A stretch of 64,000 nucleotides of DNA, taken from a virus. How positions within the stretch are numbered: position 1 is the stretch's first letter; the number at the start of each line of letters is the position of its first letter. The translations under genes and the position numbers were made by a program. Where the stretch lies: the IMG/VR virus record IMGVR_UViG_3300013958_000126, positions 1-64,000 of that record. The stretch is one strand, 5' to 3'. The notes beneath the pieces were generated by a model, which was not told the origin of the DNA, did not search any database, and saw only the letters and a list, made by a program, of their open reading frames with translations. Below are positions 1,810 to 21,206 of this stretch, in pieces.

Positions 1810-3687
1810 CTATGCTTCCACATATACTGCATCAAAGTTACAGTTGTCCTTACATGCACCGCATTTGATACAGATGTCGTTATCAATGTGATATGGATGT
1901 TTAATCTTACCTGAGATCGCGCCTGCCGGACAGTTCTTTGCGCATTTCCCGCAGCCAATACAGAACTCAGGGTTGATGTGGAACTGACGAAGAGCAGTAC
2001 ATACTTTTGCACGGCATTTCTTATCGCGGATATGTTCCTCATATTCATCGCGGAAGCGTTTGAGAGTACTGATAACAGGAAGAGGTGCACTCTTGCCAAG
2101 TCCGCACAGAGCCATGTTCTGAACCATATTTGCAAGCTCTTCCAGCTCATCCAGATCGGACATCTCACCCTTTCCATCTACGATCCTCTCCAGGATCTCC
2201 AGCATACGTTTGGTACCCTCACGGCACGGTACACATTTACCGCAGCTCTCACGCTGGGTGAAGTTCATAAAGAATCTGGCAACCTCAACCATACAGGTAT
2301 TCTCGTCCATAACTACCAGACCACCGGATCCCATAATCGCATCTAATTTTTTGACAGAATCAAAATCAAGAGGTGCATCCAGCTGGTCAAGGATCAGACA
2401 TCCGCCGGACGGACCGCCGATCTGGACACCTTTAAATGCGGCGCCACTCTTTAAGCCACCACCGATATCATAGATAATGTGGCGGAGTGTGGTTCCCATA
2501 GGAACCTCTATCAGACGGGTATTCTCGATAGAACCGGTCAGTGAGAAGGTTTTAGTTCCGGGGCTTCCCTCTGTACCGATGGTGCGGAACCAGTCTGCTC
2601 CCTGAAGAATAATCTTCGGTACATTAGCATAGGTTTCTACATTATTAAGAACTGTAGGCTTACCCCACAGACCTTTCTCTACTGTACGGGGCGGTTTTAC
2701 ACGAGGCATACCTCTGTTACCCTCGATAGATGCGGTAAGTGCCGAACCTTCTCCACATACGAAAGCTCCGGCACCTCTGTTGATATGTAAATGGAAGTTT
2801 ACACCGGAATTTAAAATATTATCACCTAACAGGCCATATTTTTCTGCCTGTTCAATCGCCATCCTAAGTCTCTTTACAGAAAGAGGATACTCTGCACGAA
2901 CATAAATATATCCATTCTCCGCACCGACTGCGTAGGCTGCAATAGTCATACCTTCGATCATCTTATATGGATCACCTTCCATGACGGAACCATCCATAAA
3001 TGCACCGGGATCACCCTCATCACCATTACATACAACATAGCGGGTTTTCTCTGCCTGGCGTGCAACCTGAGACCATTTCTTGCCTGCCGGGAATCCTGCA
3101 CCGCCACGACCGCGAAGCCCGGATTTAGTTACTTCATCAATAACTTCCTGCGGGGACATACTTCCCATCACTTTTGCAAGTGCCTGATAGCCTCCCACAG
3201 CAATATACTCTTCGATAGATTCCGCATCGATTTTTCCACAGTTTTCAAGAACGATACGTGTCTGTTGATTTAAGAAAGGAATATCATCAGGATGTGGACA
3301 GACTGTATTATTATCTCGATAAAACAGCCTCTCTACAGGTTTTCCTTCCAATATAGTTCTCTCCACAATTTCCTTACAGTCTTCCGGCTGTACGTGAACA
3401 TACTGATAATCATATGGTTCAATTCTCATCAGAGGTCCAAGTTCACATAAGCCCTGGCACCCTGTTTTGATCACGCCTACATGAGGCACATCCTTCTGCA
3501 TTTCAACTGTTACTCCATCAATTCTCTCACAGAGTACTGACATCTCTTCATAAATCTTCTGCGCTCCGGATGCGATACATCCGGTACCTGAACAGACAAG
3601 AACGCGGCAGGTATAAGATTTAATCTGCTCATTTACTTCAGCCTGCTTATTTAACAGGTCTTCTTTACTCTTAATACTCATACGCAC
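1810..3687 (-). CDS. hydB: NADH-binding flavoprotein subunit of bifurcating hydrogenase (NuoF/HndC-like)
   Basis: 625 aa; GRGGAGFPAGKKW FMN/NADH motif, ESCGKCVPCREG 4Fe-4S motif, C-terminal 2x[4Fe-4S] ferredoxin CxxCxxCxxxCP repeats; overlaps hydC start by 10 nt (operon). Confidence 0.9.
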   Translation of the reverse strand: MRMSIKSKEDLLNKQAEVNEQIKSYTCRVLVCSGTGCIASGAQKIYEEMSVLCERIDGVTVEMQKDVPHVGVIKTGCQGLCELGPLMRIEPYDYQYVHVQPEDCKEIVERTILEGKPVERLFYRDNNTVCPHPDDIPFLNQQTRIVLENCGKIDAESIEEYIAVGGYQALAKVMGSMSPQEVIDEVTKSGLRGRGGAGFPAGKKWSQVARQAEKTRYVVCNGDEGDPGAFMDGSVMEGDPYKMIEGMTIAAYAVGAENGYIYVRAEYPLSVKRLRMAIEQAEKYGLLGDNILNSGVNFHLHINRGAGAFVCGEGSALTASIEGNRGMPRVKPPRTVEKGLWGKPTVLNNVETYANVPKIILQGADWFRTIGTEGSPGTKTFSLTGSIENTRLIEVPMGTTLRHIIYDIGGGLKSGAAFKGVQIGGPSGGCLILDQLDAPLDFDSVKKLDAIMGSGGLVVMDENTCMVEVARFFMNFTQRESCGKCVPCREGTKRMLEILERIVDGKGEMSDLDELEELANMVQNMALCGLGKSAPLPVISTLKRFRDEYEEHIRDKKCRAKVCTALRQFHINPEFCIGCGKCAKNCPAGAISGKIKHPYHIDNDICIKCGACKDNCNFDAVYVEA

Positions 3688-4157
3688 TCTCCTCTCAGTT
3701 TATTCAAAAGTTCTACAGCTTTCTCAGGAGTCATCTTCGGATGTACTTCATCATTGACAGTCAGTGTGGGGGCAAGTCCACATGCACCCAGACAGGATAC
3801 TGTTTCTACGGTAAAAAGCATGTCATCTGTAGTGTGTTTCTTGTTGCTCAGTCCAAGTTCCTTCATCAAAGCCTCTTTTACAGGCATGGATTTTCTCACA
3901 TGACAGGCTGTTCCGTCACACACTTTAATGACATATTTCCCTTTCGGCTCAAAAGAAAAATTCTCATAGAATGTGGCTACACTGTAGGCCTTGGCTTCTT
4001 TTACTCCGATTTCTTTCGCTACATAAGTCAGCAATTCTCCCGGCAGGTAACGATATTCCGCCTGAATATCCTGCATGATCGGAATCAGCGATGCTGCTGT
4101 ACGTCCGTAGTGCTCGATGATCTCATCCGCTTTTCTGTAATAAGACTGGTCTAACAT
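3678..4157 (-). CDS. hydC: NuoE-like 2Fe-2S thioredoxin-fold subunit of hydrogenase (HydC/HndA)
   Basis: 159 aa; CDGTACHVRKS ... CLGACGLAP cysteine pattern of NuoE family; strong SD (AAGGAGGGAAC) upstream of ATG at 4157. Confidence 0.85.
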   Translation of the reverse strand: MLDQSYYRKADEIIEHYGRTAASLIPIMQDIQAEYRYLPGELLTYVAKEIGVKEAKAYSVATFYENFSFEPKGKYVIKVCDGTACHVRKSMPVKEALMKELGLSNKKHTTDDMLFTVETVSCLGACGLAPTLTVNDEVHPKMTPEKAVELLNKLRGECV

Positions 4158-4606: not shown

Positions 4607-5815
4607 TTAGCTGATTTTTTGGAATGCTCTGCACGTATTTATATCATTCATCGTACTTTCTAACAACTTAATGTCACTCATTTTTTTATCACTTAAAACT
4701 TCTGTATAGATATCCATGGTCATCTGAATATTTGTATGTCCAAGATATGATTGTACTGTCTTTGGTGGGATTCCTGCCTCAAAACAGCGTGTGGCAAATG
4801 TGTGTCTAAATGTATGCGCACTAAATTTTGGCATCAGAGGCTGATTTTGAGATGCTCTAATTTTATTAACATTATTTCTTACTGTACGTATCGAACTACC
4901 AAGTACTTCATCCATCAAGGGTCTATTATTTCTTGTCACGAAAAGGAGCTTACCAAGAACGTCAGAGTCATAATCAATCGGTGGCAATGTATTGAGCTGC
5001 TGTACTTGATCTTCAATTGCTTTTCTGCATATGGAATTCATCGGTACGGTTCTTATACTGGATTTAGTTTTTGGTATGCTGATTTTGTATCCTAAAAAAT
5101 CATCTTTTGAAGATTTTCTAAAATAAGTTAAAGTTTTAGTAACATTTATAGTATTATTTTCAAAATCAATATCATCTAAAGTAAGCGCTCTCAGTTCTCC
5201 TGAGCGAAGTCCTGTATTAACTGCGACAACATATAGATTATAATAGAAGCATCCTTTCGCCATAAAGAAGAAATCTCTTTGATCCTCACGGGATAAGGTA
5301 ACGATTTTTCTTTTGTCAGTTCCGATTATTTTTATGCCTTTTGCCGGGTTTTTAGTACATAAATCATTATCCATAGCATAAGAGAATAAATCGCACAAAA
5401 CTGTACGTATATTATTGACTGTACTTTTATGTAACCTTTTACCCAGCCCGTTAAGTAAATCTGTTACCATCAATTTAGTAATTGATGACAATGGCAATCT
5501 ACCTAGTACAGGTTTTATATAGCAATGGTATGTACGTATATATATTCTAATTGTACTTGGCTTCAGAACAGGTTCTTTATATACCCTCATCCACTTTTCA
5601 TACCACTGATCCAAAGTCATACTGGAGTCTACTACATTATTCTTACTGTAATTATCTACAACTTCACTCATTAATGCATTTTTAACTTCTTTTAAAGTTA
5701 TCCCGTATACGCATCTACGTTTCCCGAACCTATCTGTAAATCGGGCTTGATATCTACCGTCCTTTCTCTGTGAAATGCCCTTTCCGAGTTCTTTACCTTT
5801 TAAATCTTTTCCCAT
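4607..5815 (-). CDS. int: Tyrosine-type site-specific integrase (phage integrase family)
   Basis: 402 aa; C-terminal catalytic signature HTFRHTFAT ... GHTNIQMTMDIYTEV (R-H-R-Y family), N-terminal basic arm-binding region; sits at host/element GC boundary. Confidence 0.85.
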   Translation of the reverse strand: MGKDLKGKELGKGISQRKDGRYQARFTDRFGKRRCVYGITLKEVKNALMSEVVDNYSKNNVVDSSMTLDQWYEKWMRVYKEPVLKPSTIRIYIRTYHCYIKPVLGRLPLSSITKLMVTDLLNGLGKRLHKSTVNNIRTVLCDLFSYAMDNDLCTKNPAKGIKIIGTDKRKIVTLSREDQRDFFFMAKGCFYYNLYVVAVNTGLRSGELRALTLDDIDFENNTINVTKTLTYFRKSSKDDFLGYKISIPKTKSSIRTVPMNSICRKAIEDQVQQLNTLPPIDYDSDVLGKLLFVTRNNRPLMDEVLGSSIRTVRNNVNKIRASQNQPLMPKFSAHTFRHTFATRCFEAGIPPKTVQSYLGHTNIQMTMDIYTEVLSDKKMSDIKLLESTMNDINTCRAFQKIS

Positions 5816-8796: not shown

Positions 8797-9372
8797 TTAA
8801 TTCTCCTTTATGCTTTCCATAAGTTCACTACGAATTTCATTATACATTTTATGTAACTTAGGATTAACAAAAGTCATCCATTCTCGCCGTTTATCCTGTA
8901 TCATAAGTGCTCTCAACATGGTCCCAGAGATGGGTAATTCTTCACGATTAATGATTAATTCGGTTGTGTTCTTTAAATCTTTCTTGTCGAACCATCCACT
9001 CCGGCTATCATCATTACCATAAATCATTACATCTGGATTTTTATAAATATATCGATCTGCATTTTGAAGAAGATATCTACCCCAATCTGGTGTGATATCA
9101 TTTTCATCAGTAAGGTCTGATAATGCATAAATCATAATGTTTGGATCATCACCATATACTTCACGTATCATCTTGATTCTAGTATTAACATTCAAAGGAT
9201 TACGTTTTGTCCCACATTCTTGTGCACTGCCAACAAGAATAAGCATCCGATCACAAAGCAATAACCCAGTATCAATAAGTTTTTCATGGCCTTTGTGGAA
9301 CGTTTGAAAACGCCCACAAACAAGCCCAACATCATATGGTTTCATGTTATTTCTTCTCCTCTTTAATTCCAA
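8797..9372 (-). CDS. nadM: Nicotinamide/nicotinate mononucleotide adenylyltransferase (NadM-type NMNAT)
   Basis: 191 aa; cytidylyltransferase-fold signature GRFQTFHKGH (HxGH) as in archaeal/phage NMNATs. Confidence 0.75.
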   Translation of the reverse strand: MELKRRRNNMKPYDVGLVCGRFQTFHKGHEKLIDTGLLLCDRMLILVGSAQECGTKRNPLNVNTRIKMIREVYGDDPNIMIYALSDLTDENDITPDWGRYLLQNADRYIYKNPDVMIYGNDDSRSGWFDKKDLKNTTELIINREELPISGTMLRALMIQDKRREWMTFVNPKLHKMYNEIRSELMESIKEN

Positions 9373-9607
9373 GTGTATAAATAAATGTTACTAAGAACAC
9401 AATGGAAAAAGCGATATATATAATAATTGCTGCAGGAATAGTAAATATAACTGTAAGAAATATATATATCTTACCGAACCAATTTTTATTTTGGGACCAC
9501 TTTTTATATTCTTTTATTGGTAATAATTCATCAATTGCACAATTAATTATTAAAATTGTTGTGAAAAGAATTTCGATTAACAAGAATGATATAAATATGT
9601 TCTCCAT
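9347..9607 (-). CDS. Small membrane protein
   Basis: 86 aa, two hydrophobic helices. Confidence 0.4.
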   Translation of the reverse strand: MENIFISFLLIEILFTTILIINCAIDELLPIKEYKKWSQNKNWFGKIYIFLTVIFTIPAAIIIYIAFSIVFLVTFIYTLGIKEEKK

Positions 9608-10368
9608 TATTCTGCCTCCACTTTTAATTCAGGATTAAATACCGGAATCTTCTCTGATTTGAAGAGACATCGTTTATGCATTAAATCAATCTTAGCTTTT
9701 ACAGCCAGATCGTCAATCTCTCCTGTACGAAGATATCTGTCCAGAACTTCATATGGGAATCCTAAATTGTCCTCATCTGTCTTTCCACATAATCCATCAA
9801 TTGGAATCTTTTCAATAAGTTCTGTAGGAAGCAATAATTCATATCCAAGTTTTTTAACTTCATATACAGTTAATTTTCCTAACGGACTAAAATCACCTGC
9901 CGAATCACCATACCTGGTTTCATAACCGACATATGATTCTGAAAGATTACATGTATTTGCTACTCTTCCATTACAAGACTGAGAGACAGCATATAATGTA
10001 GACATTCTAATACGTGCCGGAAGATTTATTTTTGTCTGTTCGCTGATCTCGATTCCTGAGCTTTCGAGTCTTGACAATACACTTCGAACTGTGTCGCTAA
10101 TGTTGATTTCGTATGATTTAATATCAAGAAATTCACAAAGCTTGTACGCAGCATAAATATCTTTCTGCTGACCCTGTGGCATTAGTACACCAATTACACG
10201 ATCTTTTCCAAGAGCTTCTACACAAAGCGCTGCTACTACGGAAGAATCTTTTCCACCAGAGATTCCTACAATTGCATTGCAGCCGGGACCATTCTGATCG
10301 AACCAGTCTCTGATCCACTGTACAATTTCATTCTTGAGTTCTTTAAAATATCCATCGTAATATTTCAT
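9607..10368 (-). CDS. nadE: NH3-dependent NAD+ synthetase
   Basis: 253 aa; PP-loop ATP pyrophosphatase motif GISGGKDSS and NadE-like downstream blocks. Confidence 0.8.
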   Translation of the reverse strand: MKYYDGYFKELKNEIVQWIRDWFDQNGPGCNAIVGISGGKDSSVVAALCVEALGKDRVIGVLMPQGQQKDIYAAYKLCEFLDIKSYEINISDTVRSVLSRLESSGIEISEQTKINLPARIRMSTLYAVSQSCNGRVANTCNLSESYVGYETRYGDSAGDFSPLGKLTVYEVKKLGYELLLPTELIEKIPIDGLCGKTDEDNLGFPYEVLDRYLRTGEIDDLAVKAKIDLMHKRCLFKSEKIPVFNPELKVEAE

Positions 10369-10369
10369 C

Positions 10370-10729
10370 TTATAATCCTCCTAAACAATTAATATATTGT
10401 TTAACATTGCCATTATCATATGTCTTTGTAATCAATACGGCAGACACTGTTTGTCCTATTCTTCCATGATATTTACGATATGTACTTTCATCACTAAGTG
10501 AATATTCCACTCCGTTATAGTCTACCGTAATTTCATACTCGGCATAATCTGTCCGAAATTGTGGAACATGATTAATTATACCTATGAAACGAGTTTCTTT
10601 CGGTTTATAGTATTCATTAACAATTTTGACTTTTACACTTTCTTCTTTCTTATCAATACATTTAGCGCAACCAGTCAACATAAATGCACTGATAAGCAGA
10701 AGAATTAATATAGTAGTTACCTTTTTCAT
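10370..10729 (-). CDS. Putative lipoprotein
   Basis: 119 aa; signal peptide with lipobox LTGC. Confidence 0.45.
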   Translation of the reverse strand: MKKVTTILILLLISAFMLTGCAKCIDKKEESVKVKIVNEYYKPKETRFIGIINHVPQFRTDYAEYEITVDYNGVEYSLSDESTYRKYHGRIGQTVSAVLITKTYDNGNVKQYINCLGGL

Positions 10730-10783
10730 TTTGATTCCTCCTGCAGTTCCTTTCTTACTTTCATAAGAATTTATATGTAACTC

Positions 10784-11068
10784 CTACTGTCCTTTATGTC
10801 TTGACATATCGACTGTTGTTTTAAAATATTTACCAATTGTTGCAATTGTTGCACAAATAACAGGGATCATTGGTTTCGTAAATCTAGTTGTATTAAATAT
10901 GATATTTAATCCATTAACCAATGCGTCCCCTACAAAAAATTTCAGTATACATCCACCTATGTAAGCAAACATAAATGATAATGCCGGACTAATAACAAGA
11001 GTGAAAATCGCAAGGATGATTACTGTAAACGCACCTATTCCTTCTAATGTATTATCTTTTCTGTTCAT
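10784..11068 (-). CDS. Membrane protein
   Basis: 94 aa, hydrophobic. Confidence 0.4.
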   Translation of the reverse strand: MNRKDNTLEGIGAFTVIILAIFTLVISPALSFMFAYIGGCILKFFVGDALVNGLNIIFNTTRFTKPMIPVICATIATIGKYFKTTVDMSRHKGQ

Positions 11069-11477
11069 TTAATTCCTCCGAATCTTTTTCATATTCAACT
11101 ACAATTACATGTAATCCATATCTTCTTGCAGTATCAATCATATTTTTTGTACCTCGCGATTCACCATCCCAAAATGCGATCAACGTACCAGAGCCTGATT
11201 CTGATGCAAATTTTGCCATTTCATTATTACGTCTAGGGCCAGCAGACTTTCCATAAACTCCCCATAACGCTTGAAATCTTATAACGGAGTAACCATTATC
11301 AAACGCATAACATTCACCAAGCCTATCTGCACCTTTTGCACCACCACTGATAACTCTAATTTGCTGAGTGTTATTAACTTGATTCTCTTCGATATAATCT
11401 GACACAGTTTTCTTAAGCAAACGATAATCATCAAAATCTCGTGAACCGGCTATAATAATATTCATCGCCTCGCTCAT
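11052..11477 (-). CDS. SLOG/DprA-like Rossmann-fold protein (DUF2493-like)
   Basis: 141 aa; IIAGSRDF ... VISGGAKGADRLGE ... FWDGESRGT pattern typical of the Smf/DprA-LOG (SLOG) superfamily. Confidence 0.5.
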   Translation of the reverse strand: MSEAMNIIIAGSRDFDDYRLLKKTVSDYIEENQVNNTQQIRVISGGAKGADRLGECYAFDNGYSVIRFQALWGVYGKSAGPRRNNEMAKFASESGSGTLIAFWDGESRGTKNMIDTARRYGLHVIVVEYEKDSEELNEQKR

Positions 11478-12016
11478 TCATCCAGCCTCCATAATTCCAC
11501 ATCATAATCTTTAAGTTCCTCTTCAATGATTTTATAAACCATTTCCCAGTCTGCTCCCCCTCTTCCACAACCAATCTTATACGGAAGTGCTACTGAAGTT
11601 CTACAAAGATCTTTTCCTTCTAGTCCATTTTTTTCACGCCATACTCCAAAATGTTGCGAAATATATCTTAAACCATATCTAAAAGCTTCAAGATCTGTAT
11701 ACTGTTTACCATCATATCCATATTTATTTTGTGCGAATAAAGACAATACAATTTGACCTCTATCTTTCAATAAATATGCATCACACGTTCCGAGTAGTTC
11801 TTCCGACTCGAACTTACAAAACTCACAAAACTTTCTATAGTGTTTATAAATGCCTTCATCATAATCTCTTAATGCTTTAGCGACTCCAGTGTTCATTTCT
11901 CCTTGGCAGTTAACCTGATGAATTATAAAATCTGTCTTTGCATTAACGATATTACCTTCAATAATTTTAATCATAAATCTTTTCCTATAAATCCTGAAAT
12001 GTAAACTTCTCGCCAC
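11474..12016 (-). CDS. Macro-domain protein (ADP-ribose / ADP-ribose-1''-phosphate processing)
   Basis: 180 aa; macro-domain signature IHQVNCQGEMNTGVAKAL (cf. NAxN..GGGV). Confidence 0.65.
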   Translation of the reverse strand: MARSLHFRIYRKRFMIKIIEGNIVNAKTDFIIHQVNCQGEMNTGVAKALRDYDEGIYKHYRKFCEFCKFESEELLGTCDAYLLKDRGQIVLSLFAQNKYGYDGKQYTDLEAFRYGLRYISQHFGVWREKNGLEGKDLCRTSVALPYKIGCGRGGADWEMVYKIIEEELKDYDVELWRLDE

Positions 12017-12392
12017 AGGAGCAAATCACTTCTCCAATAGTTCCGATTGATGTTGGTGTAAAGCACCATGTAAGAGAGCCGCCTATGCAACCATGTCCCA
12101 TTGCTCTCTGTTCCATAGTTTTCAAACCATGTTTCTCAGCATCATGTTTTAATTCCCACTCTCTGATTTTCTCTTGTTCTTTTTCTGAAATTGGAAATCC
12201 TCTATACAGATCCTCTTTCGCTTTTTTCAGTTCTGCTTCCATTCTCTGCATTTCAGAATCTTTATAATGCTCATCTTTGAGTTTCTTGTTTTCTTCTCCT
12301 AAGTATTTAATTCGTTTTTCATAAGTATCTACTTTATCAATAATCCCCTGACAAAGATCTGAAACTGAATCAGTAAAATATGTTCTACTCAT
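11985..12392 (-). CDS. Hypothetical coiled-coil protein with C-terminal Cys cluster
   Basis: 135-aa ORF. Confidence 0.4.
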   Translation of the reverse strand: MSRTYFTDSVSDLCQGIIDKVDTYEKRIKYLGEENKKLKDEHYKDSEMQRMEAELKKAKEDLYRGFPISEKEQEKIREWELKHDAEKHGLKTMEQRAMGHGCIGGSLTWCFTPTSIGTIGEVICSCGEKFTFQDL

Positions 12393-12394
12393 TT

Positions 12395-12934
12395 TTATAC
12401 CTCCTTCATTAAATATTTCACTGGAACCTTTTTAGTCAGCCAAACTCCATTTTTAGATAAGTAAAATTTGTATCCATCTTTGTACATCTGTTCACTATTG
12501 ATAGAATAAACAACTTCTTTACCATGTCTTTTGCCGACAGCTTTGGCAGTTTCAACATCTTTTGACAAATGAACATATAAACGACTTTTAGGAATCAGTC
12601 CGTTCTGATCAATAGACGCTATATATTTCTCGCCAGTTCCATGATAAAGAATTTTAGGTGGCTCTTTCTCTTCCAGTTCTACATCTACCGGAATTGAATG
12701 TCCCTGATTCGCTCTGATCAATGTCTTGTCATCATTGAAAGAATATCGCTGCTTATTGTCAGTCCGTACAATTTCCTCTAAAAATTCTTTGTTGAATCCG
12801 GGATTGTTTTTAGCGATACCCTGAATCAGTTCTTCTACATTCGCCCAACCATGTTCATCTATAGTAATACCAATAACTTCAGGCTTATGTCTTAATATAA
12901 GACTTATATATCTACTAATACTTTGTAAATTCAT
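12395..12934 (-). CDS. kptA: RNA 2'-phosphotransferase Tpt1/KptA (NAD+-dependent)
   Basis: 179 aa; LSLILRH, RANQGHS, HGT motifs of the Tpt1 family. Confidence 0.8.
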
Positions 12935-12949
12935 TCTCTTTACTCCTCT

Positions 12950-13423
12950 TTACTCCATAAATGATGAAACATGTACAGTTACAAAATCGCTATGTGCACG
13001 AATATAATCCAAAGTTTTAACTGTATCTTCTACAATTGCAATCTGAGATGGCTTAAGTCCGAGCTTTTGTTGCAGCGTTTGAAGCACAGTAAGTTTTTCT
13101 GTCTTTTCTAAAGTGAAATAGATATTATCATCTGGCAGATCATAATTGTCTTTTATAAAAGCTCTTTTACCAGGAATTTCATTTAAAGGACTCTTTGAAC
13201 AGGTATATACTTTATTCACGCCTTTCTTCTGAATAAACTCCTGCATTAATTTGATCGGACGCACATCTTTATACGGATTCTCACCGGAAGCTACAAGTCT
13301 GTCCCATTCATCGTCAGTCATACTATGACTTAATTCAGAAAACTCATACGGAGCAAGTACTCCATCTACATCCATTACTACAATCACATCATCTTTTAAT
13401 AAATAATCTGTAATTTTACTCAT
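12950..13423 (-). CDS. HAD-superfamily phosphatase-like protein
   Basis: 157 aa; HAD motif I VVMDVDGVL. Confidence 0.5.
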   Translation of the reverse strand: MSKITDYLLKDDVIVVMDVDGVLAPYEFSELSHSMTDDEWDRLVASGENPYKDVRPIKLMQEFIQKKGVNKVYTCSKSPLNEIPGKRAFIKDNYDLPDDNIYFTLEKTEKLTVLQTLQQKLGLKPSQIAIVEDTVKTLDYIRAHSDFVTVHVSSFME

Positions 13424-14891
13424 CTTTGTTTCTTCCGTTTAATCTGTCTCTGATTTCTTTAAATATTTCTGTATGATATATTTCACCGTCTTTAAATACA
13501 GTTTTTAATGCCCCATCATAAACAAAGCTGTCATATCCATCTCTGCACCTTAATTCTCCATTTTCATCGTAATATACATGACAACATCCTTTATGAGATT
13601 TCTTTAAATGGCTTACATCTGTCTTTGGATCTTTGTAAATCATAATCGGTTGTCCGTTAACTTCTCCAAATGTAGCTTTCATAGCAATGCCGAACATATC
13701 TCTGGTTACAACGACCATACGTCCATCAGGTTCTACAACTGCCGAGAAACAAAAAGCCCCAACTCCAAATACAATGTTGTTTGCAGCGAATCCTTTCTTC
13801 TCAAGTTCTTCCCATACCTTTTTTACATTGTTAAGAGTACAGCCATCACCATAGATAATTCCAATATGAGGGTCCAGTACTTTGTAACCTTTGCTATTTA
13901 CTGATCCTTCAAATGTATTCCAGAGTTTTTCGATAGTCTTAACTGAAATCTCTACCATATCACCAGAATCCGGACGAACCAAGAGCTTACCATTGTGCTG
14001 CATAATTTCTTTTTTGCAAGCTGGAAGAATATTGTCAATCATGTTCCAGTAATCATATGTATCAGATACCATGCTGAAAGATGCATTCGGATATAATTCT
14101 GTAAGTAGTCTTTTCACAAATGTAATTTCGTCTCCGTCCACAGCATAATTTGAAGCCATGACCGCATGTTCGGTAGAAATCGCACCAATTCCAATATGAC
14201 TCACGCTACAGTCATTGAAATAATATTTGTCCAAATAATCAATTGCCGGGATCGTACTTGTCTTATCAAAGGATAATAGCCAAGCAACGGAGCATCTCTC
14301 TGCTTCTTCCATACAGGACATTCCACGCATTCCAAAGTCTGAGCAGGCCATTTCAGGTCTTAAAATGTCGTCGCAGGTCTTTTTATAGTAGAAATTTGCC
14401 AGTTCTCTGTACATATGTCCAATTGTTGCATGAGCACACGGCTTCCAAAGCTCAACCTGCAGAATACACTCAATCCACTGCACAACCCATGCAAAATCTG
14501 GATGTGTATTCGTGATTTCAATGCATGGCACTCCCATAGGCACTAATGTACCTTCCGGTAATGCACGGATCTGAATCGGAAGATACCCTAATTCGTGAAG
14601 TTTAAGGATTGGAGAAATATCGTAATTTCCTTCTCCTAACTGAATGTCCATACTAATTGTATAAAGTTCTTGAACTTCATCAGTGCTTAATTTAAAGAAA
14701 TCTCTTTTAAAATATGTAATAAGATATTCTTTAATAAAAGCCTGCAGTCCGAAGAAAACCATATGATCCTGCTCCTTTAACATTGATCTTCTCGGAGTCC
14801 AATAAGAGACTAACTTCGTCAATCCTCTCGGAAACATATTGTGGTGTACTTGTTTGTAAGTATCGCTTAACAGAATTGCTAAGGTATCCAT
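13416..14891 (-). CDS. nadV: Nicotinamide phosphoribosyltransferase family enzyme (NadV / Namat-like)
   Basis: 491 aa; NAMPT N-terminal LLSDTYKQVH block and full-length similarity pattern; cannot distinguish NadV from Namat by eye. Confidence 0.75.
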   Translation of the reverse strand: MDTLAILLSDTYKQVHHNMFPRGLTKLVSYWTPRRSMLKEQDHMVFFGLQAFIKEYLITYFKRDFFKLSTDEVQELYTISMDIQLGEGNYDISPILKLHELGYLPIQIRALPEGTLVPMGVPCIEITNTHPDFAWVVQWIECILQVELWKPCAHATIGHMYRELANFYYKKTCDDILRPEMACSDFGMRGMSCMEEAERCSVAWLLSFDKTSTIPAIDYLDKYYFNDCSVSHIGIGAISTEHAVMASNYAVDGDEITFVKRLLTELYPNASFSMVSDTYDYWNMIDNILPACKKEIMQHNGKLLVRPDSGDMVEISVKTIEKLWNTFEGSVNSKGYKVLDPHIGIIYGDGCTLNNVKKVWEELEKKGFAANNIVFGVGAFCFSAVVEPDGRMVVVTRDMFGIAMKATFGEVNGQPIMIYKDPKTDVSHLKKSHKGCCHVYYDENGELRCRDGYDSFVYDGALKTVFKDGEIYHTEIFKEIRDRLNGRNKDE

Positions 14892-15259
14892 TATTTTTTA
14901 TCCTCCTCTTTGTCATTTACAATTTTATCAATCTGATCTGTGATATAATCAACTACATCTTTACCAGTTTTGCCAATTGTTTGAATATTATCTGGTGTGA
15001 TTTCATTTACAACTGCCATCGTATATATTGTTTCTGTATTAGGTGTCATGATTGTAATGATAGTCATTACAACACATCCGATAATTAATTTGCTAATAGT
15101 TTTTCTAAACTTAAATGGTTCGTTATATCCGGTTAATCCAGCAAATAAAGCACACATAGCAATAACTCCGCATATTCCTGCGATCATTCCAAAAAATGTT
15201 GTTAAATTATCTGCTCTACTAGCAGAATAAATCAACCAAGGACTAATAATCGGTTTCAT
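14891..15259 (-). CDS. Membrane protein
   Basis: 122 aa, 3 predicted TM helices. Confidence 0.45.
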   Translation of the reverse strand: MKPIISPWLIYSASRADNLTTFFGMIAGICGVIAMCALFAGLTGYNEPFKFRKTISKLIIGCVVMTIITIMTPNTETIYTMAVVNEITPDNIQTIGKTGKDVVDYITDQIDKIVNDKEEDKK

Positions 15260-15272
15260 ATTTTTATCTCCC

Positions 15273-15662
15273 TTATAACTTTCCTATCAAACAGCCCCAA
15301 GTAAAAGCAATCTGAAACATATGAGTTATCTGATCTTGAATTAAATTAATTTTCTTTTTATTGGCTTTCATATCATCTACTAACATATGTATCAATAAAT
15401 TCATAACCAATAATAAAGGATTCCATTTACCGCCAATAATCATAAGCGCAATTGTTGGTGGTAACATAATCATAAATGACCAACTAAAGCTATGCATAAA
15501 CAACGCTGCTAAATAATCATATTTATATAATTTTCCTGGTGCATTCTTTTCCCACCATGATTTTTGTTTTGCAGATGCCAACCATCCTTGTAAATAATAA
15601 TCATCTACAATGTGGCAGAAAATCATTGTAAATAATATAAATATTTTATATGCAATATTCAT
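15273..15662 (-). CDS. Membrane protein (DUF3307-like)
   Basis: 129 aa hydrophobic. Confidence 0.4.
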   Translation of the reverse strand: MNIAYKIFILFTMIFCHIVDDYYLQGWLASAKQKSWWEKNAPGKLYKYDYLAALFMHSFSWSFMIMLPPTIALMIIGGKWNPLLLVMNLLIHMLVDDMKANKKKINLIQDQITHMFQIAFTWGCLIGKL

Positions 15663-16465
15663 TATCTAAACCTTTCAACCAGTTCAATCTTAGGACTTTC
15701 CAGATTTGTTAGAATCGTATCTGTCGTATAAATCTTCTCAATCAGTCCATTGTTTTTCAGAAGTTCTCCTTCATAAATAGTATTCTCACAATGAGTTATA
15801 TAAAGATAAATCTTATTTACTCCTGTTTCTTTTAGTTTCTTAGCACTATAATAAAAAGTACCACCTCTGCTGCAGATATCATCTACAATAAGGATATCTT
15901 TACCTGGCAGTTGATTAATTTCACCTGATAAATCTAAACCTTTAATTTCTCCAGTCTCCCAATCTCTATTCTTAATACCGAAAGCATATGGAAGATGTAC
16001 TGCTGAAGAATATCGCTTCATGGATCCCGCATCCGGATAAAACATCATAAGGTTATTACTCGCAATCTTCTTAACAGCATCCTCAATCATTCGATTCGGG
16101 GATTCTACATGTACTTTATTAAATAATGCGGCAGATACATCAGAATGCGGATCTAAAACTTCTACTTTTCCAAAATGTAATGAATTAATAGTCTGAGCAA
16201 AATATTTTAAAGTAAATAATTCGTTCTCATGCTTGACTCGATCCATACGTGCATCTGGGATATAAGGCATATATAAATTAGGCACTACTCTATGATCCCA
16301 ACAATATCTAGTAATATATTCAACTGCTGTTAATTCTTCCATTGATTCAAAGAACCATTCAATATTATCTCTACACCATCCTCCGATGGGTGGGATATTC
16401 TTAAATAAGAATGTCCCATCAGGATATTTGTCAAGTTTGATTTCTACACCGTTTAATTTAATCAT
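15662..16465 (-). CDS. Ribose-phosphate pyrophosphokinase family enzyme, N-terminally trimmed (Prs / Adps-like)
   Basis: 267 aa; PRPP-binding loop ILIVDDICSRGGT, PP-loop-like PDARMDR, FYPDAGSMKRY. Confidence 0.75.
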   Translation of the reverse strand: MIKLNGVEIKLDKYPDGTFLFKNIPPIGGWCRDNIEWFFESMEELTAVEYITRYCWDHRVVPNLYMPYIPDARMDRVKHENELFTLKYFAQTINSLHFGKVEVLDPHSDVSAALFNKVHVESPNRMIEDAVKKIASNNLMMFYPDAGSMKRYSSAVHLPYAFGIKNRDWETGEIKGLDLSGEINQLPGKDILIVDDICSRGGTFYYSAKKLKETGVNKIYLYITHCENTIYEGELLKNNGLIEKIYTTDTILTNLESPKIELVERFR

Positions 16466-17572
16466 TTAGTTCTCCTCACGTTCAAACAATTTTAATTTCC
16501 AGTTATCTTTGAATATTTTATGTATTTCATAAAGAGATATATTAGACTCGCAATATTCATTCATATGAGTCATAGCCAATGTCTTTCGACATGGGATTCC
16601 AGAGGTTTTTATGTCTGCTTGACATCTTTCATATAGTTCTTCAACATTTAACTTCCCATATCTCAAAGTATCCTGATGCGGATTTGGAACATTGGTTAAA
16701 TCTTTTATGTCTGGATTAATCTCTTCCTTATTACATTCAGTTGGGAACGCACCGGCTCCATGTCTAGTCATATATGTACGTGTCACATAACAAGCTTCTA
16801 TATTAATCTCATCAGTCCAATTTACAGACTTTATAATTCTTGCAGGATTTTTAATACCAGTGTTGGATGGAGTAAGATGTGGGTAATATTCAGTATTATT
16901 TTGATCTAAAAGAAGCCCCTGCCCATTTTCAAATACTATGATATCGTATCCATCAAGTAATTGATCATCATTCACGACATGTATGTGCGACATCATAAAA
17001 TCAAAATCTTCATTGTAATGGTCTTGAAGCCAAGGATTTTTGAAATGATTAAATAATTCTTCTTCCTGCTCAGATAACGTAATTCCCATGCGCTTGAACA
17101 TATTCATATAATATGACCATGACGATGAATATGAAGTAATATGTTTTTTATAGCGTTGAATTGTATTATAAATACCCATTCCACAGCTTCCGTGTTTATT
17201 ATTACCGCGGCTTTTCTCGATTATTTGATTTGCCATCATATCAAAAGGATTTGTAATCATACATTTTTCATGAACATACACATGAGGTTTCCATCCTAAT
17301 TTCTTCAACTCTTCCCATTCTTCCCTAAATACCAGAGGATTTAAAATAAAATCCTCCGGTAAATAAGTATCTGCTCCGTTTAATGTTCCAGAGCCGAAAT
17401 GGTGAAAGACATGCCGGGTTCCATCTGATTTTAATACTGTATGTCCTCTCTGAGCGCCGCCATTTGAACACACAACGATACAGTTATCTGCATTTTTAGT
17501 ATAATAATCTGTTAATTTGCCCTTACCCTCGTCACCAAAGTTTGCCCCGATGACAATTTTTATATCTTTCAT
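16466..17572 (-). CDS. Adenylosuccinate synthetase family ligase (short PurA/PurZ-like)
   Basis: 368 aa; PurA P-loop GDEGKGK, GGAQRGHT, HGSCGMGIYNT (cf. TGRGIGP) blocks; start abuts Prs-like stop. Confidence 0.65.
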   Translation of the reverse strand: MKDIKIVIGANFGDEGKGKLTDYYTKNADNCIVVCSNGGAQRGHTVLKSDGTRHVFHHFGSGTLNGADTYLPEDFILNPLVFREEWEELKKLGWKPHVYVHEKCMITNPFDMMANQIIEKSRGNNKHGSCGMGIYNTIQRYKKHITSYSSSWSYYMNMFKRMGITLSEQEEELFNHFKNPWLQDHYNEDFDFMMSHIHVVNDDQLLDGYDIIVFENGQGLLLDQNNTEYYPHLTPSNTGIKNPARIIKSVNWTDEINIEACYVTRTYMTRHGAGAFPTECNKEEINPDIKDLTNVPNPHQDTLRYGKLNVEELYERCQADIKTSGIPCRKTLAMTHMNEYCESNISLYEIHKIFKDNWKLKLFEREEN

Positions 17573-17581
17573 ATATTCTCC

Positions 17582-18478
17582 TTACCAAACAATAGCTCCT
17601 GATTCATCTGTCTTTGCCTGAACTAATGGTGTTACTTCTGGGATGTTGTTGCTTTCATTTGCAGAAGTAATAATTTCTACAATTGTATCTGTAATATCAT
17701 CAAGTTTATTAATTGTACAAAAATGCTTATCATCAAGATATTCTAAAAATGATTTTTTAATTTGCTCTTGGTCATACCCACCACGATGATTTACATTAAT
17801 ATGATAGATATCAAATTTCTCAGCAGTTTCTGTATACAAGTCTTTTGTTTCTACATCAGCCTGAAGTGAATCTCCTGTAGCATTTGATAAGCCACAATAA
17901 TATGCTGTCCTTGGAAGATAAGGATTAAGTCTCTCATCACCAATTGTGATAATTATTCCTTTTTTACCTCTATTCCAACAATCAAGCTTTGTATGTCTGG
18001 CACCAAAATACCATGCAGCAGTGTAAGATTCATAAGAATTACCACCACCACCAAACTCAAAATAAACTTTCTCAAGCTGTTCTGCAATTCGAATATCGGA
18101 TTCAAACTGAGATGCCTGTATTGGAAACCTATCATATGACAAATCGCCAATACCCATTACCATAAATTCAATATCTTCAACTTGTTCATATAATTTCGTC
18201 ATAATATTATTAAGTTTTTTAGATATTTCAACAGCTGCCTGCCCCATAGATCCGGTAACATCTAAAGCTAAAATAACTGGAACTGTATTTGGATGTTCTT
18301 TACTATCACAACATTCTCTTACGACATTTTTAGGATTGAGTGATGAATCAAGTTCTTTTGATTTAAACATTTCCTGATTAGAATAGCTTTTTGTGACTAC
18401 TCCTCGTGAATCAGTGTCATATCCTCTTGTTGTTGCATAATTTACAAAACTTGCCGTTGTCCAACTTCCGCTTCCCAT
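17582..18478 (-). CDS. von Willebrand factor A (vWA) domain protein
   Basis: 298 aa; MIDAS motif DVTGSM. Confidence 0.6.
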   Translation of the reverse strand: MGSGSWTTASFVNYATTRGYDTDSRGVVTKSYSNQEMFKSKELDSSLNPKNVVRECCDSKEHPNTVPVILALDVTGSMGQAAVEISKKLNNIMTKLYEQVEDIEFMVMGIGDLSYDRFPIQASQFESDIRIAEQLEKVYFEFGGGGNSYESYTAAWYFGARHTKLDCWNRGKKGIIITIGDERLNPYLPRTAYYCGLSNATGDSLQADVETKDLYTETAEKFDIYHINVNHRGGYDQEQIKKSFLEYLDDKHFCTINKLDDITDTIVEIITSANESNNIPEVTPLVQAKTDESGAIVW

Positions 18479-18480
18479 AA

Positions 18481-19113
18481 TTATTCATCCTCCTCTAAAT
18501 CATCTTCACTATCTTCTGTGTCTGTATCATCCATGCTAAAATCAAACATACCGTCAAATACATCACCAATACCACCATTCATCATCATAAATGGCATCAT
18601 AGCACTCATTGGATTACTGTCTGTTCCAGTTCCGGTACCGGCCGCTCCATTCATCATCTGGGACATCATCATATATTTAAAGATTTTATTTGCACTATTC
18701 TTATCTTTTCCAAGATTACTTCCAAACATAGATACAATTTTTCCATAGAAATAAGTATTTCCCATAAATACATGGCGCTCCGGCAGAATTGTTTCAACTG
18801 TAGAATCTTCATAATTGATTACAGTGATCTTTGTTTTATCTGCTTCGATGACGCACTTAGGTTTGCCATTTACAAGGATGATGTCTCCTTTAGCCACCTT
18901 ATTTGTTGGAATGACGAAGAAAAAGTTTTCATCTACTCCTGGGAATACAAAATTTCCACAGTTTGTGAGCTTACCGGATTTAACATTGTAACTCTTATAT
19001 CCATTAGAGGTTTTTACTGCGATATTACCACTCATAGATAACTTACACATTCCACTACCAATTTTTCCAAACATTCCATTCATAAAATTATTCATCATTT
19101 TAATTCCCTCCAT
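18481..19113 (-). CDS. Hypothetical Met-rich protein with poly-acidic C-terminus
   Basis: 210 aa; MMxxMM low-complexity segment, DTDTEDSEDDLEEDE tail. Confidence 0.45.
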   Translation of the reverse strand: MEGIKMMNNFMNGMFGKIGSGMCKLSMSGNIAVKTSNGYKSYNVKSGKLTNCGNFVFPGVDENFFFVIPTNKVAKGDIILVNGKPKCVIEADKTKITVINYEDSTVETILPERHVFMGNTYFYGKIVSMFGSNLGKDKNSANKIFKYMMMSQMMNGAAGTGTGTDSNPMSAMMPFMMMNGGIGDVFDGMFDFSMDDTDTEDSEDDLEEDE

Positions 19114-19121
19114 TGTTTAAT

Positions 19122-19784
19122 TTAATTTCTATTGATTACATTAATCTGGCAGCTTTCCATTACATCAAGAGCCGCTTTATGCTTTTCCGGTGTTGATCCT
19201 GCGCAGCATGATGCATCAACTGTGATTTTTGCCTCTGGATAATAAGTTTTAATCAAAAGAGCGTTCGTAATAACACAGATATCTGTGCATATGCCAATAA
19301 TTTCAATATCTAATAAAGAACCATCTGTAGTATTAAATATTTCTTCCCAATCCCAGTCATCAAATCCAAAAGTAGATTTACAACATACCATAAAACTATC
19401 GAGATTTTTATAATCAAGTTCATCAACAATTTCCCAACCTTTAGTACCATACATACAATGTTCAGGAAGTTTTCTGCCCTCTGAAGTATCTGCGTAATCT
19501 GAATGATGAGTATCCTTTGTAAGAATTACATTGTTCTTATTATTCTTATATTCATCAAATTTCTTTTTCACATTTGGTACAATAGCTTGTGCTTCCGGTG
19601 TTCCAAGAACTCCTGTCACAAAATCATTCTGCACATCAATTACAATCAGAACTTTCTTCTTCTCTTTTTTCATTTTTATTCTCCCATTCTTTAATTTGCT
19701 GTGCTCCATCTTCAACTTGCTGCTTATCATGTCTTGAATAGTTATCTGCTGGACCATAAGCACCTTTATGTCGATATGAGGCAT
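19122..19784 (-). CDS. Isochorismatase-family hydrolase (nicotinamidase PncA-like); true start probably internal Met (MKKEKKK, ~19673)
   Basis: VLIVIDVQNDF, catalytic Cys context GICTDICV. Confidence 0.6.
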   Translation of the reverse strand: MPHIDIKVLMVQQITIQDMISSKLKMEHSKLKNGRIKMKKEKKKVLIVIDVQNDFVTGVLGTPEAQAIVPNVKKKFDEYKNNKNNVILTKDTHHSDYADTSEGRKLPEHCMYGTKGWEIVDELDYKNLDSFMVCCKSTFGFDDWDWEEIFNTTDGSLLDIEIIGICTDICVITNALLIKTYYPEAKITVDASCCAGSTPEKHKAALDVMESCQINVINRN

Positions 19785-19995
19785 GTCCTTTCCGAGTATT
19801 AGTTTTTACTGCAGTTCCACCCATGCCAAGTCGTCCACTGTGTCCTTTATGTAACATCCCCCTCTTTAAAATCAGGATCGTTCAAAGTTTTATATCCATG
19901 ATACATAAGTTCTCGTTGACTTATTAATTTTTTTCTACGTTCAATATTTCGTAGTCTTTGCTTTCTCAAATACCCTCTGTTACGTTCCGGCATTA

Positions 19996-20454
19996 CTATT
20001 CCTCCAGTCTATACAAAATAATTGGTCCACCTTCAATATAGAACGTCGCATTGTAATCTATAAATTCTCTAGCCTCATCTTCTGTCATATCCTCATGGTT
20101 AACTAAAGATTCAACCATTTTTTCGTAATCATATATTGCTCTATCATCAGAAGAAACACCAAGAAACGCATCTTCATAAGATGGATTTGTAAAGAATATC
20201 GTTCCCTCGTACCCGGCCTCTAACAATAACCGTTCTGTTTTTGATACTTGGTCTTCATATATATTATCTGCATGTGCTTCAATGTCATCATGTAACGTCT
20301 CTTCTGGGTAATCTATAAGAGAATCCATAATATAAGAAGAAGTAATCATATTTAAAGCTTTCTCTTCTGAAATTTGATATTTTCTTTGTAATACATCTTG
20401 CAATCCTTCAATGTAACCCTTAACACTTTCTGTAAGTTCTGACATATCTACCAT
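19996..20454 (-). CDS. Hypothetical acidic protein
   Basis: 152-aa ORF. Confidence 0.45.
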   Translation of the reverse strand: MVDMSELTESVKGYIEGLQDVLQRKYQISEEKALNMITSSYIMDSLIDYPEETLHDDIEAHADNIYEDQVSKTERLLLEAGYEGTIFFTNPSYEDAFLGVSSDDRAIYDYEKMVESLVNHEDMTEDEAREFIDYNATFYIEGGPIILYRLEE

Positions 20455-21206
20455 TATGCGATCCTCACAATCTGTTCATATAGAACTATATCTTTTATTG
20501 TTATTGCTTTATTGTCGTGGTAATGTCCACACAACCAACGCTTATAATCAACATTGCACCTTATTTCTTCCAGATAATTTGTTAACTTATCCGGCTTATA
20601 TAATCCATGTGATAATAATGCTGCTGTAGAAGAAGCTGTACAATGTGTCAGGATAAAATCTACTTTATTATCATGTTCTGCCAGATTCTTTATACCCTCA
20701 TCCATCTCTTTTTCATCTGGCATTTCTCGCTCCCACCATGAAATGTGATTAATTCGGTACATTTTATCCGGATCATCCCTCCATTCTTTTACTCTTGGAT
20801 CGTCAATCTCTAATACTCCATCTGAAATATCATGACTTGAAGCCCCTCCAAAGGTAAAGAATGTTAAATCGTCTATCTCAAACACCTGTCCTCTCATAAG
20901 ATGAATTACTGATGGTTTAATAAAATGTACCTTACCTCCATGCCATTCTTCTACCGGATAAGAATCTAATATATCGTAATTCTCATGATTTCCGTCAATA
21001 AAGAGTGTTGTGAAATGTTTCTCTTCAAGCCAATTCAGGTACCACCTTTGCTGCGGTGAATCTCTCCATATCCCAAAATCTCCAAGAATTATCACATAAT
21101 CGTCCTTCGACATCTCACGCTGTTCGGGAAAAGAATCCATATTAACTCTATGGATCCAATCCCCATGCGTATCTCCAGTTACCCAAATCATGTCCGTGAT
21201 CCCCAA
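20454..21206 (-). CDS. Calcineurin-like metallophosphoesterase
   Basis: 250 aa; GDTHGD ... GDFGIWRD ... GNHEN metal-binding motifs. Confidence 0.7.
   Translation of the reverse strand: MGITDMIWVTGDTHGDWIHRVNMDSFPEQREMSKDDYVIILGDFGIWRDSPQQRWYLNWLEEKHFTTLFIDGNHENYDILDSYPVEEWHGGKVHFIKPSVIHLMRGQVFEIDDLTFFTFGGASSHDISDGVLEIDDPRVKEWRDDPDKMYRINHISWWEREMPDEKEMDEGIKNLAEHDNKVDFILTHCTASSTAALLSHGLYKPDKLTNYLEEIRCNVDYKRWLCGHYHDNKAITIKDIVLYEQIVRIA

Follow-up and report, generated by a model that had tools for sequence, protein, structure and literature searches.

The 64,000-nucleotide (nt) stretch of DNA analysed here as a whole (the window), positions 1 to 64,000 of IMG/VR virus record IMGVR_UViG_3300013958_000126, carries a gene for a PurA-type enzyme, hereafter the ligase, that lies within a conserved cassette not described before. 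Judged by its sequences, the ligase family is a clade of its own in the PurA (adenylosuccinate synthetase) superfamily, distinct from both PurA and PurZ and marked by its own invariant active-site signature. The cassette, which has three to four genes and is so far uncharacterised, has a conserved gene order, in which either a gene that we call g210 or a gene for a J-domain kinase-like protein is followed by a vWA/MIDAS gene and then by the PurA-like ligase gene. Our tentative reading, to which we would assign a probability of roughly 45%, is that the ligase would aminate an inosine monophosphate (IMP)-type nucleotide with an amine other than aspartate, and that it would do so in a vWA-paired cassette tied to ADP-ribose (ADPR) or nicotinamide adenine dinucleotide (NAD) stress. 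The cassette genes of the window are the following:

16466..17572, minus strand: PurA-superfamily ligase, 368 amino acids (aa), the catalytic gene of the cassette (Pfam PF00709, PHROG 1211).
17582..18478, minus strand: vWA/MIDAS partner, 298 aa (PHROG 2971), directly upstream of the ligase gene with a 9-nt spacer.
18481..19113, minus strand: third cassette gene, g210, with a small beta-rich N-terminal part, a Met/Gly-rich region, and an acidic tail.

The original prediction, made from the letters of the window, had read here a 368-aa PurA-family open reading frame (ORF) with the blocks GDEGKGK, GGAQRGHT, and GMGIYNT, shorter than housekeeping PurA. That ORF is present on the minus strand with these motifs at residues 13-19, 38-45, and 131-137, and at 368 aa it is indeed shorter than the 432-aa PurA of Salmonella, a difference that consists mainly of the missing C-terminal guanine-binding region. 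The match to Pfam Adenylsucc_synt (PF00709; E = 1.8e-38) covers residues 6-284 only, on profile positions 1-280 of 416. An AlphaFold2 model of the ligase has a predicted local distance difference test score (pLDDT) of 80, and its best Foldseek matches are bacterial PurA (E = 1e-14, template modelling score about 0.65). On the PurA equivalog models TIGR00184 and NF002223, the ligase scores 97.9 and 107.7 bits against cut-offs near 400, and a chromosomal member of the family (L139) reaches 141-155 bits on the PurA equivalog models.

A homologue search of 1.84 billion cluster representatives (50% clustering) yielded 2356 proteins at E ≤ 1e-30, and the family alignment comprised 149 diverse representatives together with 80 loci from GTDB species genomes. 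The family-invariant signature consists of D14, E15, K17, Q41, H44, S129, C130, R140, Q218, T234, R270, H271, N294, N297, Q300, and R304. What is kept from PurA is the P-loop (G13, D14, E15, K17) along with H44 (His41 in PurA), Q218 (Gln224), T234 (Thr239), R270, and R304 (Arg305), and the canonical PurA catalytic set of Asp13, Lys16, His41, and Gln224 is found as the invariant D14, K17, H44, and Q218; with these residues PurA holds a 6-oxopurine nucleoside 5'-monophosphate and passes the gamma-phosphate of an NTP on to O6. Other PurA residues have invariant replacements in the ligase family: Asn38 by Gln41, Thr128-Thr129 by Ser129-Cys130, and Val273 and Thr301, aspartate determinants according to E. 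coli mutagenesis work, by His271 and Gln300, with a new residue at Asn297. PurA Arg131 and Arg303 are lost.

These changes fall into the second-substrate and nucleotide-base pockets. Canonical PurA recognises L-aspartate through loop 298-304, with Thr300/Thr301 and Arg303, and through Val273. The PurA aspartate loop GATTGRRRR becomes N-x-P-N-P-x-Q-x-T-x-R, with N297, [HFY], Q300, and T/V/S/N302 at the aspartate-loop positions and only the Arg305 equivalent R304 kept, whereas the PurZ of phage phiVC8, which is an aspartate user, retains TTVTKKVRR. In place of the guanine motif TKLD stands T-[H/C]-x-[N/D], and the ligase lacks the guanine-binding segment (S-x-G-P) at the C-terminus. In PurA, Arg303 and the TT tip of the loop contact the aspartate substrate, and the Val273 position, an invariant His in the ligase family, adjoins the sugar 2' position (PMC8342488). 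Because the catalytic residues are kept and the aspartate and guanine residues are changed, the ligase seems capable of O6 phosphorylation on an IMP-type nucleotide, and its pockets for the second substrate and for the base of the nucleoside triphosphate (NTP) have been rebuilt.

The suggestion in the original prediction of a novel ligase is plausible in this light, since the aspartate pocket is rebuilt with invariant residues. The GTP-dependent ligation step offered as an example there loses its footing because the guanine-specificity elements are gone. Nor is the active site identical to that of IMP-specific PurA, a comparison set beforehand: the residues of the first half-reaction are kept and the aspartate and guanine determinants are replaced. 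The ligase resembles bacterial PurA (EC 6.3.4.4; E. coli 1ADE/1CG0) in fold, in the P-loop GDEGKG, in the catalytic Asp/Lys/His/Gln, and in partly retained ligands of the nucleotide 5'-phosphate, but it is about 65 residues shorter, reaches a quarter of the equivalog cut-off scores, and is always paired with a vWA protein. We rejected it as a canonical PurA on the scores of 98-108 bits against cut-offs near 400 and on the replacement of the aspartate determinants and the guanine pocket by other invariant residues.

The same comparisons separate the ligase from PurZ, which had been raised as one possible identity. In a 2026 Nucleic Acids Research study of 767 PurA homologues, the PurZ group comprises PurZ and PurZ0, all 147 phage PurZ/PurZ0 sequences (100%) carry Ser where E. 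coli PurA has Asp13, and Asp is kept at this position in 99% of the PurA clade (PMC12884076). The equivalent ligase residue, D14, is Asp and not Ser, invariant in the 149 family representatives and in 80 of 80 genome loci, and in the alignment the P-loop of phiVC8 PurZ reads GSTGKG against GDEGKGK in the ligase. The NCBIfam PurZ model NF038379 gives 49.6 bits against a cut-off of 300, and among solved structures the sequence E values are 1e-18 for bacterial PurA, 0.018 for phiVC8 PurZ (6FM1), 0.033 for PurZ0 (7VF6), and 0.23 for the PurZ of S-2L (7ODX). PHROG 1211, which the ligase matches at 3e-88, is named "2-aminooxy adenylosuccinate synthetase", a PurZ-derived label that is over-extended to the ligase family, for which the existing database name is "PurA-like adenylosuccinate synthetase".

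A phmmer search of the window (E ≤ 10) with phiVC8 DatZ, the adjacent p26, and DpoZ gave no homologue (DutZ and DmtZ were not queried with sequences of their own), and the replicative polymerase is a DnaE-type Pol III alpha, so the statement that no DatZ/MazZ/DpoZ trio stands beside the ligase gene is borne out. The HD protein pointed out along with it is real:

29219-29992, minus strand: HD protein (Pfam HD, 4.4e-10) with an ExoX-like C-terminus.

This protein shows no similarity to phiVC8 DatZ. The ligase has in common with phage PurZ/PurZ0 (6FM1, 7ODX, 7VF6) that it is a short phage-borne PurA homologue, that strict GTP dependence is lost, and that the PHROG is shared. PurZ (succino-amino-deoxyadenylate synthase), however, has Ser for the catalytic-site Asp and keeps the tip of the aspartate loop, neither of which holds for the ligase, and it is accompanied by DatZ/MazZ/DUF550 or DutZ/DmtZ together with a PolA-type DpoZ or a PrimPol, which is not so for the ligase here. 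With Asp14 kept, 49.6 of 300 bits, marginal E values of 0.018-0.23, and no DatZ, MazZ, or DpoZ homologue in the window, an assignment to PurZ or PurZ0 was rejected, and with it the PurZ-like option of the original prediction.

The partner with which the ligase has evolved is the vWA gene rather than the Prs-like gene downstream of it, and the partnership is obligatory. The vWA-ligase pair is present in 80 of the 80 IMG/VR loci that we fetched, with ligases 46-100% identical to that of the window; a vWA gene lies directly upstream of the ligase gene in 82 phage loci and upstream of it in 77 of the 80 bacterial genome loci, the other 3 of which end at a contig edge. The ligases of Rhizobium phage RHph_TM30 and Vibrio phage pv27 are 38% and 34% identical to the window ligase (tblastn), and in both phages the gene upstream is a homologue of 17582-18478 at 35-37% identity, while gp248 of Mycobacterium phage Bxz1 matches the vWA family profile with an hhalign probability of 100% (E = 5.6e-43). 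The modelled vWA protein (pLDDT 90.6) has a vWA domain in which the MIDAS motif D73-x-T75-x-S77 has invariant D73 and S77 and a T75 conserved in at least 90%; the protein has no homologue in the PDB at the sequence level. All 235 of 235 full-length vWA homologues, those of Bxz1, TM30, and pv27 included, begin M-G-x-x-x-[W/F/Y], and such an invariant N-terminal Gly is unusual. In some relatives, proteins of 302-303 aa (P0194-P0198) align at 92-93% identity with about 74% of the vWA partner and have a Tpt1/KptA (PF01885) domain besides; these may be deletion variants without the ligase, Prs, NAMPT, and HAD genes, in which case that block would be dispensable in some strains.

The third position of the cassette is filled in two ways. 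The g210 protein matches no Pfam, PHROG, or NCBIfam family. Its gene precedes the vWA gene in most of the 80 IMG/VR loci, in 13 of the 19 phage loci left after dereplication (TM30 and pv27 included), and in 31 of the 80 genome loci. A J-domain kinase-like gene takes its place in Bxz1 (gp247), in 5 IMG/VR loci, and in 40 of the 80 genome loci, and among the genome loci the two (31 and 40 of 80) are mutually exclusive. The J-domain kinase-like protein (J-kinase) has an N-terminal J-domain whose HPD is invariant; in its kinase-like domain, the Asp position of the canonical catalytic loop lacks conservation. Homology between g210 and this protein was considered and rejected at an hhalign probability of 0.5%. 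The gp247 protein of Bxz1 weakly matches the defence-associated kinases MAD6 and PglW, a hint of a conflict-system context. The window itself has the vWA gene upstream on the same strand, the full ligase signature, and the g210-type third gene, and PADLOC recognised no known anti-phage defence component among its ligase, vWA protein, and g210.

Bxz1, of mycobacteriophage cluster C, is among the closest known comparisons and has the J-domain variant. Its gp250, annotated "PurA-like adenylosuccinate synthetase", shares the clade signature (D, Q41, H44, S-C, H271, Q300, R304) and has the vWA homologue gp248 upstream, with gp247 as the third gene. It differs from the window ligase in an identity of only 27%, a longer C-terminus, a 90-aa gene between the vWA gene and the ligase gene, and the lack of an adjoining NAD island, and it is likewise uncharacterised. 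We found no paper linking PurA-like genes with vWA or NrtR, and no functional study in the literature on PurA-like proteins with vWA, NrtR, anti-defence, or jumbo phages.

The cassette is not confined to phages. To judge by their flanking genes, many of the 80 bacterial genome loci are ordinary chromosome and not prophage, for example:

Clostridium carboxidivorans P7: chemotaxis, peptidase, amine oxidase, and LysR genes.
Desulfitobacterium sp. Sab5: Lon, AbiH, and multicopper oxidase genes.
A Lachnospiraceae contig: GH43, aldo-keto reductase, and xanthine/uracil permease genes.
Ruminococcus flavefaciens: GGDEF/EAL and CotH genes.

The AbiH abortive-infection gene of Desulfitobacterium sp. Sab5 (L129:7235-8233) lies directly downstream of the chromosomal cassette, again a hint of a conflict context. 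In the Lachnospiraceae contig, the xanthine/uracil-family permease (L128:8284-9684) follows the NrtR-like gene of the cassette, which is consistent with a purine-related role, and this permease is not among the neighbour families common to at least 5 loci.

Clustering of the flanking ORFs identified a fourth gene adjoining the cassette in 57 of the 80 genome loci, coding for a protein with NUDIX and NrtR_WHD domains. Where the third gene is g210, this fourth gene directly follows the ligase gene; in the other loci it precedes the J-kinase gene or is divergent from it. The Nudix box of the NrtR-like protein is intact, and among the NCBIfam models the protein matches "ADPR responsive transcriptional repressor" best, at 110-154 bits where the equivalog cut-off is 400, with NadM-type ADPR pyrophosphatases next. 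In the bacterial genomes, two lineage-specific palindromes cluster in the 160 nt before the first cassette gene, in upstream segments that make up 1.4% of the bases searched. The first, (T/A)AGTAG-N7-CTACT(A/T), often a tandem pair, has 20 of its 37 matches in these upstream segments, and the second, TGTTATTAT-G-ATAATAACA, has 20 of 25. Because several of the loci are related, the binomial P values make the matches look more independent than they are. They occur in loci L098, L100, L102, L112, L113, L118, L120, L122, and L124; L090, L127, L134-L136, L142, and L145-L162, with an extra copy between the J-kinase and vWA genes in L098 and L100. We regard them as candidate operators of the adjacent NrtR-like regulator.

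An NrtR-type neighbour in 57 of 80 loci with palindromes just upstream recalls the NrtR regulons, in which ADPR-responsive Nudix/winged helix-turn-helix repressors control NAD metabolism. Unlike in those regulons, the regulator here scores below the equivalog cut-off and was not found in the phage versions of the cassette, the window included, and our search, which did not extend to the regulon literature itself, turned up no paper naming PurA-like, vWA, or J-kinase targets. Apart from two weak matches elsewhere, neither the window nor the IMG/VR phage loci gave a match to an NrtR-like regulator, so this component belongs to the chromosomal versions only, and the palindromes of the chromosomal cassettes were searched for in the window and none was found.

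In the window, the cassette lies within an island of NAD genes that resembles NAD+ reconstitution pathway 1 (NARP1), between a PncA-like isochorismatase gene and a Prs/Adps-like gene:

8797-9372, minus strand: NMNAT/NadD-like.
9607-10368, minus strand: NadE.
11474-12016, minus strand: macro domain.
12395-12934, minus strand: Tpt1/KptA.
12950-13423, minus strand: HAD.
13416..14891, minus strand: NAMPT/Namat-like phosphoribosyltransferase, 491 aa (PF04095 + PF18127; PHROG 448, 3e-161; NF006629, 458.6 bits).
15662..16465, minus strand: Prs/Adps-like, 267 aa (Pfam PF14572/PF00156, PHROG 619), local context rather than a conserved partner.
19122..19784, minus strand: isochorismatase/nicotinamidase (PncA)-like (Pfam Isochorismatase, 2.8e-24), directly upstream of the cassette.
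20454-21206, minus strand: metallophosphoesterase.

The island spans 8797-21206, much more than the Prs and NAMPT genes. The isochorismatase matches the NCBIfam nicotinamidase/pyrazinamidase model at 2.9e-7, far under its cut-off. From 11 to 22 kb of the window, sequences resembling promoters or terminators that would split the operon occur at background level, so one long operon is not contradicted.

The original prediction had taken translational coupling to the Prs/Adps-like gene as its lead to an NAD or ADPR role. The junction itself is as it described: the TAA stop of the ligase gene abuts the ATG of the Prs/Adps-like ORF (15662..16465, minus strand; GAGGAGaacTAAATG), in the arrangement GAGGAG-aac-TAA-ATG, which places the Shine-Dalgarno sequence of the Prs-like gene within the last ligase codons. 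As the key partnership, however, this coupling was rejected, since it is limited to the closest clade, loci L003-L018 (at least 81% identity; 16 of the 80 phage loci) and L086. Elsewhere among the clades, a separate block 4-8 kb from the cassette holds the isochorismatase, Prs, NAMPT, and macro genes, or the flanks lack them, and in the clade of L038, L047, and L054 the isochorismatase gene lies directly beside Prs and NAMPT with no cassette between them. Besides the window, L003-L018 and L086 have the cassette between the PncA-like and Adps-like genes, and NAD genes near the cassette were found in L038, L046, L047, L050, L053, L054, L087, L147, L154, L155, and L163. The proposed role in NAD or ADPR metabolism thus keeps some support from the NrtR-like neighbour in 57 of 80 bacterial loci and from the recurrent NAD salvage genes, though not from the Prs coupling that had been its evidence.

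The Prs-like and NAMPT-like genes of the window have exactly the Pfam profile of the Adps and Namat of NARP1, and the Prs-like protein is short, as has been described for Adps (bioRxiv 10.1101/2024.02.11.579819; PMC13586617). The cassette thus sits in an island with Adps-, Namat-, and PncA-like, macro, Tpt1, NadE, and NMNAT-like genes. A precedent is RyDEP, which lies in a NARP1 operon as an accessory insert, is functionally linked to NARP1, and shows that inserts in such operons can feed the pathway. On the other hand, NARP1, NARP2, and NARP3 as described contain no PurA-like, vWA, or g210 component, NARP3 being a PnuC/NadR pair unrelated to the cassette, and in bacterial chromosomes, as in most phages, the cassette stands without NAD genes. 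The papers on NARP1, NARP3, the Adps structure, and RyDEP describe no PurA-like or vWA component.

Taken together in the reading that we favour, the ligase would activate C6 of an IMP-type nucleotide, rather than of deoxyguanosine monophosphate (dGMP), with ATP or an unspecific NTP, and the phosphate would then be displaced by an amine other than free aspartate, or by aspartate bound in a new way. The product would be AMP or an N6-substituted adenine nucleotide. The ligase would act in a complex with the vWA protein, which we propose because of the fixed gene order and the tight junctions. The weakest step is that the cassette would respond to stress signalled by ADP-ribose or NAD. Its control in bacteria would fall to a repressor of the ADPR type on operators before the cassette; in the prophage, where it is inserted in an NAD+ reconstitution island like NARP1, the cassette would help to restore purines after NAD+ and ATP have been depleted during infection; and large phages would have taken up the cassette as a module responsive to ADPR or NAD stress.

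Several points weigh against this reading. The ligase family is known only from sequences and predicted structures, and the ligase-vWA complex is proposed from synteny. The signature is not absolute, as the pv27 ligase has Asn for Gln at position 41 and the Bxz1 ligase has Ala at position 15, and the aspartate loop might still bind aspartate through its Asn and Gln side chains. In the model of the ligase, the substrate loops are of low confidence (pLDDT < 50 at residues 219-237 and 295-299). About 55 of the 80 phage loci have no NAD gene within 10 kb, and the clustering with NAD genes could merely reflect a shared region of auxiliary genes. Finally, an AraR_C domain also matches the NrtR-like proteins, and such regulators can sense other ligands.

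The ligase could also be a genuine adenylosuccinate synthetase (IMP + Asp + NTP to adenylosuccinate) carried as an auxiliary metabolic gene, with the vWA protein as a regulator or scaffold only and with more adenine nucleotides for an AT-rich genome (33% GC) as the gain, an explanation that we consider unlikely but that survives better than the other alternatives. PurA is inhibited by (p)ppGpp, and loss of the guanine pocket might let such an enzyme escape both GTP dependence and this inhibition. The residues of the first half-reaction are all conserved, the fold and the best matches are those of PurA, the databases already name the family as a PurA-like adenylosuccinate synthetase, and the phage carries NrdD, guanylate kinase, and thymidylate synthase genes for nucleotide supply. 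Yet the side chains that recognise aspartate, which PurZ has kept, are all replaced by other invariant residues, the scores are far under every PurA equivalog cut-off, and a plain metabolic enzyme needs no obligatory vWA protein, chaperone-linked third gene, or dedicated ADPR-type repressor. Clostridia genomes are expected to carry a purA of their own as well.

It is more doubtful still that the ligase is a counter-defence enzyme converting (d)IMP to (d)AMP, which would drain the precursor of the (d)ITP signal of the Kongming system or mend the ATP-to-ITP damage done by RADAR, and which would act beside NAD+ reconstitution since deoxyinosine triphosphate (dITP) activates an NADase. The Kongming preprint describes dITP-triggered NAD+ depletion and phage counter-measures on the dAMP pool. 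Such a role would suit the location of the ligase within an NAD+ reconstitution island, the Asp kept at PurA position 13, which speaks for hypoxanthine as the base and against guanine, and the invariant His in place of Val273 next to the sugar 2' position (PMC8342488). The case is circumstantial, however, the papers cited name no PurA-like counter-defence enzyme, and the chromosomal cassettes with their regulator and their vWA and J-domain partners would go unexplained.

Two further possibilities we hold to be quite improbable. Because the N-terminal glycine of the vWA homologues is invariant, which is the sole basis for the idea, the ligase might, once C6 of IMP is activated, couple the purine to the alpha-amine of the N-terminal Gly of its vWA partner and use no free amino acid. 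The product may then be a protein with an N6-linked adenylate or a glycine-derived N6-carboxymethyl-adenine nucleotide, ADP-ribose would switch on the ligation in bacteria, large phages would use it in NAD+-depletion conflicts, and the J-domain or Met-rich third protein would handle the conjugate. If true, protein-nucleotide ligation of this kind would be new. With as little probability, the ligase could be a switch that binds NTP or IMP rather than a metabolic enzyme; as a SIMIBI-type NTPase it would work with a vWA adaptor and recruit Hsp70, by analogy with MoxR-vWA remodelling machines. Against this, the residues of IMP chemistry (the equivalents of Asp13, His41, and Gln224) are invariant throughout the family, which a mere NTPase switch would not need. 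That the ligase is a PurZ or PurZ0 that turns dGMP into the 2-aminoadenine (Z) precursor, as the PHROG name and a length of 368 aa near PurZ size might suggest, has next to no chance given the Asp14 that is Ser in 147 of 147 phage PurZ/PurZ0 (PMC12884076), the low PurZ scores, the DnaE-type polymerase in a window with no DatZ, MazZ, or DpoZ homologue, and the presence of the family in ordinary bacterial chromosomes.

The genomic setting of the cassette is that of an integrated element. Window genes are all on the minus strand, and positions 1-4157 hold bacterial HydABC-type [FeFe]-hydrogenase subunits (Fe_hyd_lg_C, Nuo51-like, NuoE-like); GC content is 45% in the first 4.2 kb against 33% in the rest of the window. 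Following the hydrogenase genes is:

4607-5815, minus strand: tyrosine integrase.

A large integrated prophage thus has its left junction within the window, with host hydrogenase genes on one side and the integrase on the other. The host is probably a member of the Lachnospiraceae, because Ruminococcus sp. AM36-2AA (L086) has an 86%-identical ligase among similarly arranged genes. Elsewhere in the window, the phage has an NAD-dependent DNA ligase at 56845-58845 and a GIY-YIG/HNH-type homing endonuclease at 48747-49595, and a DndB-like protein (60191-61471) adjoins a second tyrosine recombinase (61510-62538). A tRNA cluster at 44304-46622 contains tRNA-Cys, tRNA-Met, tRNA-Leu(CAA), and tRNA-Gln(TTG), and ARAGORN assigns the tRNA-Cys at 44304-44378 the anticodon ACA where GCA would be expected.

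Homologues of PurA in phages are now routinely read as PurA or PurZ, and the ligase family adds a third, very large clade of about 2,300 clusters at 50% identity that reaches from mycobacteriophages and phages of Rhizobium, Vibrio, and the gut to the chromosomes of Clostridia. The case warns that annotation alone is no ground for inferring Z-genomes. Since the cassette is present in the cultured phages Bxz1, RHph_TM30, and pv27 and in cultured Clostridium carboxidivorans, Desulfitobacterium, and Ruminococcus flavefaciens, it is experimentally tractable. The ligase family may lead to new C6-amination chemistry, and the recurrence of ADP-ribose-sensing regulators and NAD+ reconstitution genes around it offers a lead into the NAD+-centred arms race between phages and bacteria.

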